Source of the DNA: an uncultured Verrucomicrobiae bacterium
Lineage (GTDB): Bacteria; Verrucomicrobiota; Verrucomicrobiia; Limisphaerales; Palsa-1400
Assembly (NCBI GenBank): GCA_963702845.1
Contig: OY969763.1
Location: forward strand, 3,872,001-3,936,000
Length of the DNA stretch: 64,000 nucleotides
Reading direction: 5' to 3'
Part shown: piece by piece, positions 54,289-61,205 of the stretch
Layout of the letters: each line of letters starts with the position of its first letter
Position numbering within the stretch: position 1 is the stretch's first letter
Position numbers and translations under genes: made by a program
The notes under the pieces: generated by a model
What the model was told of the DNA's origin: nothing
The model's input: only the letters and a program-made list of their open reading frames with translations
The model's database searches: none

Positions 54289-54364
54289 GCGGTTCGGATG
54301 CGACGTTGCAATTTCGGACAGAGATCATTTTAACTTTTAACAACTAACTCAAAAATATTTGCCT

Positions 54365-55548
54365 ATGGGCATGTGGATTGGACGAAATAGAAAAGCACGC
54401 GTCACCTACGGTTTCGACGAAATCGCTCTGGTGCCGGGTGAAATCACGATCAACCCCAACGAAGTTGATACGAGCTTCAAGATTCCGCGCAAAGACGGCA
54501 GCGACATCAAGCTGAAGATTCCGATCATCGCCAGCGCGATGGACGGCGTCACCGACGTGAAGTTCTGCGTCGAAATGGGCAAGCTCGGCGGACTCGGTGT
54601 GATCAATCTCGAAGGCGTGCAGACGCGCTACGAGAACCCGAGCGAAGTTCTCGAACAAGTCGTCAAAGCCGACAAGGACGAAGTCACCACGCTGATTCAG
54701 AAACTTTATCTGGAACCGATCAAAGAAGAGTTGATCGCCAAGCCGCGTCCAAGAATTGAAAAAGGCCGGCGTCCTCGCCGCCGTCAGTTCCATTCCGCAA
54801 AAGGCGGAGCGCTATCGGCTGCATCGCGCAAGAAGCGGGCGCGGATATTTTTGTGGTGCAATCGACCGTTTCGACCGTGAAACACATTTCCACCGAATAC
54901 AAATCGCTCGAACTCGAAGCGTTCTGCAAAGCGATGAACATTCCGGTGATCATCGGCAATGCCGTTACTTACAATGTCACGCTGCAATTGATGCAGTAGC
55001 GGCGTTGCCGGTGTCCTGATCGGGGTCGGGCCCGGAGCGGCTTGCACCAGCCGCGGCGTTTTGGGCCTTGGCGTTCCCCAGGTCACTGCGACCGTCGATT
55101 GCGCTGCAGCGCGCGATTATTATTTCAAACAAACCGGCACGTTACATCCCAATCATCACCGACGGCGGCATGAGCAAGGGCGGCGATGTTTGCAAAGCGT
55201 TGGCCTGCGGCTCAGATGCCGTCATGGTCGGCAGTGCTTTCGCCCGCGCCAAAGAAGCGCCCGGCAAAGGCAATCACTGGGGCATGGCCACGCCGCACGC
55301 GAACCTGCCGCGCGGCACGCGCATCAAGGTCGGCGTGACCGGCTCGTTGAAACAGATTCTGTTTGGTCCGGCCACGGTGGATGATGGTTCACAAAACCTT
55401 GTCGGGGCGATTACGACCTGCATGGGCAACGTCGGCGCCTCGACGCATCCGTCAATTTCAAGAGACGGAAATCATCATCGCGCCGAGCATCAAGACCGAA
55501 GGCAAATTGTTCCAAACGGTGCAGAGCGTCGGCATGGGCACGCGCTAG
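54365..55548 (+). CDS. guaB: GuaB3-type IMP dehydrogenase-related protein (several apparent indels)
   Basis: YGFDEIALVP, ASAMDGV, IGVGPGAACTSR, TDGG, VMVGS, WGMA; no CBS pair. Confidence 0.9.
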
Positions 55549-55598
55549 AGGCTGCTTTGAAGCTTGCGCCTCGCGAGGTTCTGATAGAAGAAGAGCGG

Positions 55599-56239
55599 GT
55601 GTCGAGCCAGCAAACATTTCGATTGGGAATTCTTGGATTCGGGAAAAGGTTCCAATGCCATGGCTATCGTTGATGCTTGTGAGGGTGGAAAAATTCCGGC
55701 GCAAGTCGCAATCGTGTTGAGTGATGTTGCTGATGCTGGCATTTTGGAAGGCGCGCAGGTGCGCGGGTTGAACAGCCGGCACATCGAGCCCGGGAAATTT
55801 CGGACAAAACTCGACGAAGCGGCCGAGGTCGCATTCATCAAAGCTTTGCAGGAAGCGAAGGTGGATTTGGTCGTGCTGGCGGGCTTCATGCGCATTCTTA
55901 AAGGCGAGTTTTTGCGCGTTTTCAAAGATCGGGTCATCAATATCCATCCTTCGTTGCTGCCGTCGTTTCCAGGGCTTCAGGCTTGGAAGCAGGCTTTGGA
56001 TTATGGCGTGAAGTTCACTGGTGTGACGGTGCATTTCGTTGATCAGGGTATTGATACCGGACCGATCATCGCGCAGGAAACTGTGCCGATTTTACAAGGG
56101 GATACCGCGAGAAACTTTGCACAAGCGCATTCAGGAGGCGGAACATCGGTTGTATCCCGCGGCGGTCGCTGCACTGGCGCGAGGGGATGTTGCGGTGCGA
56201 GGACGGCAGACCATTTGGAAACAAACGGCTGGAGTTTGA
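55599..56239 (+). CDS. purN: Phosphoribosylglycinamide formyltransferase (apparent frameshifts near both ends)
   Basis: SGKGSN, LAGFMRIL, NIHPSLLPSFPG, GVTVHFVD..DTGPII, EAEHRLYP. Confidence 0.95.
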
Positions 56240-56320
56240 CGACTTAAGTCAAAATACCGCGAATTTGCCTGCTAAACCGCTTCCCGGACGCCCTACTCTG
56301 CTTAACTGTGCGGTTGATTT

Positions 56321-56458
56321 ATGCGAAAGCCGAAAAAGAAAAAATTGGCTTTGCCCCGCCAACAGTGGACAATCAACCCGGTTACGCGGGTCAAAGAGTC
56401 CGACAAGAAGTATTCGCGGGCGCGCGTGAAAAAAACCGTTCGTAAATATGAAGAGTGA
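56321..56458 (+). CDS. 45-aa basic protein, putative ArfA/BrfA-like ribosome rescue factor (absent from the ORF track)
   Basis: hand translation [45 protein letters not shown]; overlaps the hisG start by 11 nt. Confidence 0.65.
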
Positions 56459-57332
56459 AAAGCCGGTGTTAAAATTGGGATTGCCCAAGGGCAGTTTGCA
56501 GGACGCAGTCCTGACAAGCATGGCGAAAGCGGGTTATAAAATCTCCGTCAGCAGCCGTTCTTATGTCCCATCCGTCGATGATGAAAGCCTAAGCATCCGC
56601 ATGATTCGCGCGCAGGAAATCAGCCGCTACGTCGAACACGGCTATTTGGATTGTGGCATCACTGGCTATGATTGGATCCAGGAAAATGGCTCGAATGTCC
56701 ATGAAGTCGGCGAATTCGAATTCAGCAAAGTGAGCAGCCAACCGACGCGCTGGGTCCTGGCTGTGCCGGAAGATTCTCCAATTAAATCTCCGAAAGATCT
56801 CAATGGCAAACGGCTCGCGACAGAAGTCGTCAATTTGACGAACAAATACCTCAAGCAGCACAATGTTACGGCTGAGGTCGAATTTTCATGGGGTGCGACT
56901 GAAGTGAAAGCGCACGAATTGGTCGATGCCATTGTTGAAGTCACCGAAACCGGTTCTTCACTGCGCGCCAATAAATTGCGCATCGTCGACACCTTGCTGG
57001 TTTCCACGCCCCGCTTGATCGTCAATCACGACTCGTGGAAGGACGAGTGGAAACGTAAGAAGATCGAAACGATGGCGATGTTGCTCCGCGGCGCGATCGA
57101 AGCCGAAAGCAAAGTCGGAGTGAAGATGAATTTGCGGAAGAAAGATTTGGAGACCGTTTTGAAGGCTTTGCCTGCTTTGCGCAATCCAACTGTTTCGACT
57201 TTAAGCCAGCCGGACTGGGTCGCGATTGAAACAATCATTGACGAAAAGATTGTCCGAGAATTAATTCCTCAATTAAAAGAGGCGGGTGCAGAAGGAATTA
57301 TTGAATATCCTTTAAATAAGGTTATATACTAG
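56448..57332 (+). CDS. hisG: ATP phosphoribosyltransferase, long form
   Basis: LPKGSL, RAQEI, GITGYD, SWGATE, TETGSSL, C-terminal regulatory domain. Confidence 0.97.
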
Positions 57333-57356: not shown

Positions 57357-57458
57357 ATGGGTTCATTAAAAAAACGACGTAAAGCAAAAATTAATAAGCA
57401 TAAACGCCGCAAGAAGCTGCGTGCCAATCGCCATAAGAAGCGAACCTGGCAGAAGTAG
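57357..57458 (+). CDS. 33-aa basic protein, bS22/AURKAIP1-COX24 family-like (absent from the ORF track)
   Basis: hand translation [33 protein letters not shown]. Confidence 0.85.
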
Positions 57459-57557
57459 CCAGTAGCTGGCGACCGATATGTCGGGAATGCAAAATACAGT
57501 TTAGCGAGCGCATCCCGCGTGGAAGTGGGGTGCGCTCGCCTGTTTGGTTTGGACGCA

Positions 57558-60236: not shown

Positions 60237-61205
60237 ATGCGAATTTTATCCGGCATACAACCTTCAGGCACGCTGCATCTCGGGAATTATTTCGGGATGA
60301 TGAAGCCCGCGATCGAACTGCAGAATCAGGGCGAGGCGTTGTATTTCATCGCGAACTATCATTCGATGACGTCGTTGTTCGATGCTGAACAACGGCGCAA
60401 GAATACTTTGGATGTGGCGCTGGATTTTTTGGCGTGTGGCCTCGATCCGAAAAAGTCACTGTTCTTCGTGCAGTCCGGACGTGCCCGAGGTGACTGAATT
60501 GGCGTGGTTGCTGACGACGCTAACCCCGATGGCGATGCTTGGAGAATTGTCACAGCTATAAGGACAAGATCGCGCGCGGCATCGCCGCGAACCACGGCAT
60601 TTTTGCGTATCCGGTTCTGATGGCGGCGGACATTTTGATTTACGATTCGAACATCGTGCCGGTCGGCAGAGACCAAAAGCAGCACGTGGAGGTGACGCGC
60701 GACATCGCGATCAAGTTCAACAACACTTACGGCGAAACGTTCGTGGTGCCGAAGGAGCAGATTCGCGAAGACGCTGCGGTGGTGCCCGGCACGGACGGTC
60801 AAAAGATGTCGAAGAGCTACGGGAACACGATCGAGATTTTCGGCGAAGAAAAAGCGGTGCGCAAAAAGATCATGGGCCTGTTGATGGACAGTCGCACGCC
60901 GCAGAACCGAAGCCCGACGCGGACAAAAATCTCGCGATTCAGTTGTTGAAGCTGTCGCGTCCGCCAGACGTGGCGAGAGATTTACGAAGACCGGTTGCGC
61001 GCGGGCGGATTTAGGTTATGGCGATTTGAAGAAGGCGCTGTTCGAGCACTATTGGAATTATTTCGCCGAAGCGCGGACGAAGCGCGCGGAACTGGCGGCG
61101 AACCCGGATCACGTTAATCAAGTTCTTAAAGAGAGCGCGACAAAAGCTCGCACAATCGCGGACAAAGTGCTGAAACGCGCGCGCCTCGCCAGCGGGATTG
61201 ACTAG
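60237..61205 (+). CDS. trpS: Tryptophanyl-tRNA synthetase (several apparent frameshifts)
   Basis: [40 protein letters not shown]. Confidence 0.97.

Follow-up and report, generated by a model that had tools for sequence, protein, structure and literature searches.

The 64,000-nt window analysed here, taken from the genome of an uncultured Verrucomicrobiae bacterium (Limisphaerales), contains a run of + strand genes that encloses a very short open reading frame. The run begins with purN (55633..56247, +), the usual upstream neighbour, which matches its relatives over approximately residues 1-160 only and, as assembled, seems to carry a frameshift close to the 3′ end. It is followed by a 45-aa basic ORF (56321..56458, +, ATG to TGA), a terminator-free member of an ArfA-related family, and by the constant downstream neighbour hisG (56448..57332, +), which encodes a long-form ATP phosphoribosyltransferase (PF01634, TIGR00070). 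The end of the ORF and the start of hisG overlap by 11 nt (56448..56458, +). Behind hisG lies a small basic gene of 33 aa resembling COX24_C (57357..57458, +; 22.7 bits, cut-off 23), and a terminator-like hairpin (57504..57547, +) probably closes the purN-ORF-hisG-COX24_C run. No + strand terminator is predicted between 56031 and 57504, and neither the ORF nor the stretch directly after it contains a strong hairpin (z -2.0 to +1.7 for 80-nt windows between 56281 and 56660). The COX24_C domain is related to the ribosomal proteins mS38/bS22. The COX24_C-like gene is found behind hisG in 43 of 48 ORF-positive and in 9/9 ORF-negative loci; since it is present with or without the ORF, its link is with hisG rather than with the ORF.

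The basic, histidine-free peptide ending 11 nt inside hisG had been pointed out in an earlier note on this DNA, and conceptual translation together with the hisG start ATG at 56448 bears this out. The peptide has 17 Lys and Arg, 4 Asp and Glu, no His, and a pI of 10.9. It contains no GGQ and, like ArfA and BrfA, is small and basic. The ORF is single-copy in its genome. Several housekeeping frames of the window are split (a guaB-like gene at 54359-55550, purN at 55633-56250, and trpS at 60237-61205), a pattern pointing to indels in the assembly. The ORF is intact, and it agrees with its relatives.

Conservation and distribution of the ORF

Alignments of close relatives demonstrate that the ORF is a real, conserved gene under purifying selection. 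Matches at E <= 1e-6 occur in 20 of 41 genomes, its own counted, and one of these copies has an internal stop (L020). In the 19 intact copies the start codon (ATG/GTG) and the length (40-46 aa) are conserved, the DNA upstream is not, and no Shine-Dalgarno-like element is visible by eye before the 19 starts. Conservation at the protein level, on which the earlier note had made its proposal depend, is evident in these copies, with pN at 0.21 (0.19 without the last 8 codon columns) against a pS of 0.53. The resulting pN/pS of about 0.35-0.40 is uncorrected, with synonymous sites near saturation; for comparison, hisG gives a pS of 0.64 and a pN of 0.12. Third codon positions of the ORF differ at twice the frequency of first or second positions in the same 19 copies. 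Ten residues are invariant in an alignment of 34 sequences, the best-kept columns being T22-R23-V24-K25, S27, K29, Y31, and R33, all within a conserved core that runs from R13 to R33 (56357..56419, +) and lacks the GKG of ArfA. Neither for the ORF nor for sets of 34 and 18 aligned relatives did Pfam or NCBIfam yield a meaningful family.

The position of the gene is as stable as its sequence. Synteny with hisG, a check proposed at the outset, holds throughout: hisG is directly downstream in 20/20 close loci, with purN upstream in 19/20, and again downstream in 29/29 order-level loci examined. The overlap with hisG in the 19 relatives is 4-14 nt, and exactly 11 nt in 12 of them (nearest-ATG rule). 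Labels on close homologues and on loci with this gene order point to a Limisphaerales-like genome within Verrucomicrobiota. Distribution is patchy, however. The ORF is present in 34 of 151 genomes of the order (E <= 1.2e-6), and in a 301-genome sample of the phylum the convincing matches are the own genome and one other only. In 9 ORF-negative genomes, the region before hisG gave no profile match (a tenth gave no hisG match); purN abuts hisG in four of these nine loci, and a different gene is inserted in one. By eye, a PIN-like gene replaces the ORF before hisG in one locus (L385), and apparent ORF remnants are seen there in two others (L386, L392). Selection where the gene is present and clean loss elsewhere indicate that it is kept but dispensable. 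ArfB is found in 13/34 ORF-positive versus 69/117 other genomes (Fisher p 0.05), a difference to which no weight is given, the genomes being kin and not independent.

It could be argued from this patchiness, from the internal stop in one relative, from the seeming remnants before hisG, and from the presence of both ArfB and tmRNA, that the ORF descends from a stop-less rescue gene and is now decaying, with no function in this lineage. We consider this very improbable: it sits badly with the pN/pS value and the ten invariant residues, and with a start and a length that are conserved across many families and in Omnitrophota.

A large family of short basic proteins

Motif and profile searches, of the kind suggested by the earlier note, recovered a large family for which there is no Pfam model. 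Its consensus reads R-x2-W-x2/3-[NS]-P-x-T-[RK]-[VI]-x2-S-x-K-x-Y-x-R, over about 25 alignable columns. A widened profile collects 2,685 proteins, and a narrow one 292 clusters at 50% identity; among 94 distant matches, Pfam makes no meaningful assignment. No paper on the family was found in a literature search that left most subscription papers and bioRxiv supplements outside its range. On present sequence evidence, the family is unnamed and large, and includes members from Clostridia, Bacillales, and phages. A motif scan of species genomes gave at least 120 matches, 80 of them with titles. Among the 80 titled matches listed, 24 are from Omnitrophota, 14 from Verrucomicrobiota, 9 from Clostridia, 7 from Zixibacteria, and 4 from Campylobacterota, besides others. 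The gene downstream is hisG in 37 of these 80, including 14/14 labelled Verrucomicrobiota and 16/24 labelled Omnitrophota, so the hisG link spans two phyla.

This linkage, together with the short overlaps in the close relatives, is what would be expected if the ORF were a leader that sets or couples hisG translation, its peptide being minor or acting in cis. Such a role is improbable. As the earlier note had already recognized, the lack of His codons means that the peptide is not a his attenuator; nor is there an attenuator hairpin or a terminator. Moreover, free-standing genes of Clostridia, Bacillales, and phages, at a distance from hisG, conserve the same residues, and hisG does without the ORF in all nine ORF-negative loci examined.

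Phages supply a further set of members, as all 58 viral motif matches are short ORFs. In the Herelleviridae, Bacillus phage P59 has a family member directly behind an RtcB gene (L135:2971-3105), and Brochothrix phage A9 has one directly before a PemK/MazF-like gene (L134:2965-3096); these two cases of neighbourhood are anecdotal. The phage family phrog_2701 matches 15 of 18 members of the family alignment A2, with a best E of 5.8e-7 and 0.022 for the ORF, and a phrog_2701 search of the own genome gave no matches, controls included. Among language-model look-alikes of the ORF are a DUF7230 (PF23876) cluster at 0.92 and an ArfA-labelled cluster at 0.91; the Atlas recognition score of the ORF is below the mark for strong evidence, with no Pfam match. 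Neither phrog_2701 nor DUF7230, likewise a phage family, has an assigned function.

Two other arrangements were observed. In Zixibacteria-labelled loci and two others (L160, L163, L167, L193, L198, L201, L214, L204, L208), the module continues without a stop, by fusion or in-frame overlap, into a protein of about 200-230 aa that we take, by eye, to be zinc-ribbon NUDIX-like. In L186 it continues into a protein that we take, again by eye, to be RuvX/YqgF-like. Some Clostridial genomes have two copies of the family (G473:C6:15716-15874; G840:C99; G822; G785).

Relation to ArfA, BrfA, and ArfT

Like the ORF, ArfA (E. coli YhdL; PF03889) is short and basic, and it is RF2-dependent. The earlier note had guessed at an ArfA relative, and the direct likeness on which one might have relied is lacking: the Pfam ArfA model matches neither the ORF nor its 34 close relatives at E <= 10, does not recover the ORF locus in a search of the own genome, and the family profiles give E. 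coli ArfA a score of about 0 bits, with 0.1% in a direct profile-profile comparison (hhalign). Run against PDB sequences, five family profiles returned chance matches only. The relationship instead appears through intermediates in Bacillales. When 151 Bacillales genomes were searched with the Clostridial profile (A5), three ORFs came up (L321-L323; E 1.9e-6 to 6.4e-4) that combine the family core with the KKGKGSY-x-R tail of ArfA and read R-x2-W-x-[IF]-[ND]-P-x-TR-x2-KNKKGKGSY-x-R. All three score 26.0-27.6 bits against Pfam ArfA, above the cut-off of 25.5, and 19.2, 19.9, and 9.7 bits on the Verrucomicrobial-only profile (A1), values that 0/1000 shuffles reach in each case. They have hairpins before their stops (z -1.4, -3.2, and -2.9 in a fixed window), and for one of them ArfA chains are the top PDB matches.

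A bridge profile was built from 47 sequences (A7), with neither the ORF nor E. coli ArfA included, and it reaches both ends. Against the PDB, its only significant matches are six ArfA chains (E 8e-6 to 3e-5); against the six-frame translation of the own genome, the ORF comes out best (25.1 bits, E 6.4e-5), the next match being at E 0.57. Neither the ArfA score nor the ORF score is attained by any of 2000 shuffles. A profile restricted to GKG-containing sequences (101 sequences) still has the ORF as its sole match at E <= 1 (16.7 bits, E 0.026, 0/2000 shuffles). By hhalign, A1-A7 gives 97%, A7-ArfA 94%, and A1-A5 98%. The bridge matches ArfA mainly via the tail (ArfA 27-47) and the ORF mainly via the W-INP-TRV half. 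Homology between the ORF and ArfA is therefore transitive, and on these profiles extends over about 20 columns.

The Bacillales subfamily comprises 172 proteins (P0277-P0396 listed). GKG is present in 100 of the 120 listed, and several listed members without it retain the same N-terminus; with that N-terminus shared by both forms, the GKG is a three-residue indel. Many of these proteins carry ArfA names, which are automatic database labels derived from the Pfam match. This ArfA-labelled subfamily is distinct from BrfA, includes entries named Bacillus subtilis and B. velezensis, and in some members has terminators; going by Table 1 of the published survey, it was apparently not counted there (PMC11633108).

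In the register set by the bridge, T22-K29 of the ORF faces ArfA Q27-K34, and Y31-x-R33 faces ArfA Y39-x-R41. The ArfA segment opposite T22-K25, Q27-E30, is described as the strand that is added to RF2, and the facing ArfA residues further on include the beginning of its channel-binding tail (PMC8012679). An ArfA-like core had been proposed for the ORF from the letters, and its RV..K...Y.R part does fall in register with ArfA R28-V29...Y39-x-R41, whereas the proline is not ArfA P23 and the GKG is missing. Indeed ArfA G35-K36-G37 and the KH motif are both absent from the ORF, the former as a three-column gap, and ArfA 1-26, which has a helix, A18, and F25, has no counterpart in the N-terminal half of the ORF (R-x2-W-x-I-N-P). 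GKG and KH are likewise found in 0/45 of the hisG-linked clade, and KH in 7 among 120 genome-set members listed. In the account given in PMC6299226, no single residue of the ArfA tail is essential, though changes reduce activity. The ORF is thus ArfA-like by inference, yet stands outside ArfA on Pfam score, KGKGS, KH, and non-stop mRNA.

The layout of the relatives provides a functional sign of another kind. A family profile matches 5 of 250 genomes in a sample of the Clostridial class and 51 of 121 in one Clostridial family. From these, 35 loci were analysed, namely the 5 of the class sample and the best 30 of 54 places (two of the 35 had been seeds from the earlier motif scan), and 33 remained once two without an anchor were dropped. 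A strong hairpin (z <= -2.5, stem of 12 bp or more) is present in 27 of the 33 anchored genes, beginning 3-22 nt past the core Y codon. It ends before or at the stop in 26/33, and TTTT is found at the 3′ arm in 24 of the 27. Random windows of the same loci gave 5/264. Beyond the core the tails show no conservation (15-72 aa, 10th-90th percentile), neighbours differ in kind and direction, and the stems differ in sequence, all of which indicates that the hairpin belongs to the Clostridial gene. The genomes are kin, so that 27/33 overstates independence. A hairpin before the stop is, according to PMC8012679 and PMC6881298, how tmRNA represses arfA and brfA. The stem-loop layout of ArfA is thus common to the Clostridial members, whereas the ORF has no internal hairpin and lies inside an operon. 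The absence of an internal terminator hairpin, remarked on in the earlier note, extends from the ORF (z 0.0) to the whole hisG-linked clade (0/45, with 48 loci given), where the tail is 12-14 aa; hairpins accompany 3 of the 58 viral members, none of them before the stop. With no hairpin in the hisG-linked clade, the strongest functional sign comes from relatives of the ORF and not from the ORF itself. As to the guess of an ArfA relative, then, the Bacillales bridge and the stop-less layout in Clostridia speak for it, and what fell away is any direct match to ArfA.

BrfA (YqkK), the RF2-dependent factor of Bacillus subtilis, has a basic N-terminus as does the ORF (PMC6881298; PDB 6SZS). At 71 codons it is longer than the ORF with its 45. 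Its in-frame terminator is shared with Clostridial members, while the ORF has neither terminator nor KH. In both BrfA and the family, two invariant Arg stand 10-11 residues apart. BrfA was not found beside spoIIM in two Bacillales loci, the neighbourhood we take to be its expected position. A strict short motif recovered BrfA-type genes in 3 of 201 Bacillales genomes (L395-L397), with hairpins before the stops in all three; one matches PDB 6SZS at E 4.7e-5 with the same numbering, and BrfA therefore reaches beyond the B. subtilis group. Homology of BrfA with the family did not reach significance: hhalign gives 0.1-0.9% with a BrfA profile of 3 rows only, two BrfA-type proteins score -6 to 0.5 bits on five profiles, and PDB searches with five family profiles and the bridge profile returned no BrfA chains. 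The best alignment, which is non-significant, places R25 and T35-R36 opposite R13 and T22-R23 of the family, a correspondence that is suggestive only. The likeness to BrfA claimed in the earlier note thus finds no significant match by profile or by hhalign.

ArfT of Francisella, which works with RF1 or RF2, offers a different comparison. As described in PMC6299226, it is about 40 aa long, basic, and often unannotated, all as in the ORF, and again like the ORF it has no terminator or RNase III site before its stop; its KKGG stretch near the C-terminus is absent from the ORF. ArfT is thus a precedent for a 40-aa factor without a terminator (PMC6299226).

A candidate rescue factor beside tmRNA

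From the sequence relationships above, we think it likely, with considerable reservation, that the ORF encodes a divergent, terminator-free relative of ArfA that acts as a release-factor-dependent ribosome rescue factor. Ribosome binding, a release-factor partner, and rescue activity of its product are inferred by analogy with ArfA, from which a mechanism can be proposed. In a non-stop 70S ribosome, the vacant mRNA channel would take up the basic tail (K29-K42). A class I release factor, most likely RF2, would gain a strand from T22-K25 in its domain 2/4 sheet, with W16, I18, and P20 perhaps packing against that factor and the decoding centre. The GGQ of the release factor would then hydrolyse the peptidyl-tRNA without a stop codon. 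The AlphaFold2 monomer (pLDDT 78, pTM 0.30), which had no match in Foldseek, is extended, with one helix (33-44); its lack of a strand speaks against this picture. A complex predicted with the organism's own RF2 (residues from the end of domain 1 onward) scored 0.00, a value that counts neither for nor against binding.

The genome also has tmRNA, SmpB, RF1, RF2, and an ArfB-type protein; RqcH was not found in it (completeness 90%). With tmRNA, SmpB, and ArfB present, and with relatives that lose the gene, the ORF would be an accessory, an added rescue route. Because it has its own fixed stop inside the purN-hisG run, it is probably free of tmRNA control, and it would probably be produced along with hisG without being repressed by tmRNA, as reported for arfT.

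The same traits also fit a ribosome-binding peptide with a job other than rescue, such as an optional subunit-like protein or an aid to hibernation or assembly, whether as an ArfA relative whose job has changed or as a convergent basic RNA-binding tail. This is unlikely in our view, but carries real weight. GKG and KH are absent, the stop is fixed, and there is no control of the tmRNA type; the ORF shares its run with the COX24_C-like small basic gene; and the in-frame continuations into NUDIX-like or RuvX/YqgF-like proteins could reflect targeting. Against it, the best-kept columns coincide in the alignment with ArfA's tail and RF2-binding strand, and a core ribosomal protein would hardly be confined to 34 of 151 genomes of the order and cleanly lost elsewhere.

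On the reading of the ORF as a rescue factor, it is probably a candidate of this type in a bacterial group for which none is known. ArfA, BrfA, and ArfT are held to have arisen independently and late, and further such factors are expected but described as hard to find by sequence, in the accounts of PMC6881298 and PMC8012679. According to Table 1 of a survey of 15,259 genomes, arfA is found in 0/211 PVC and 5/2,633 Firmicutes genomes (PMC11633108). It is conceivable, and we put it forward tentatively, that ArfA forms a single branch within an extensive, overlooked superfamily of very small peptides that recruit release factors, in two wirings. Such a superfamily would span Verrucomicrobiota, Omnitrophota, Clostridia, Bacillales, other phyla, and phages, and possibly include BrfA. 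One wiring would be a stop-less back-up repressed by tmRNA, and the other a terminator-free, operon-embedded form, like the ORF, that is made constitutively and frees ribosomes beside tmRNA. ArfA would then not be a narrow, late proteobacterial invention. The hisG-linked form raises the questions of whether constitutive production is possible without harm, and of what replaces KGKGS and KH. Finally, the family provides concrete candidates in the PVC and Firmicutes gaps as well as a sequence path to ArfA, which makes it testable, with short synthetic peptides, how far release-factor-dependent rescue is spread and whether it had a single origin.
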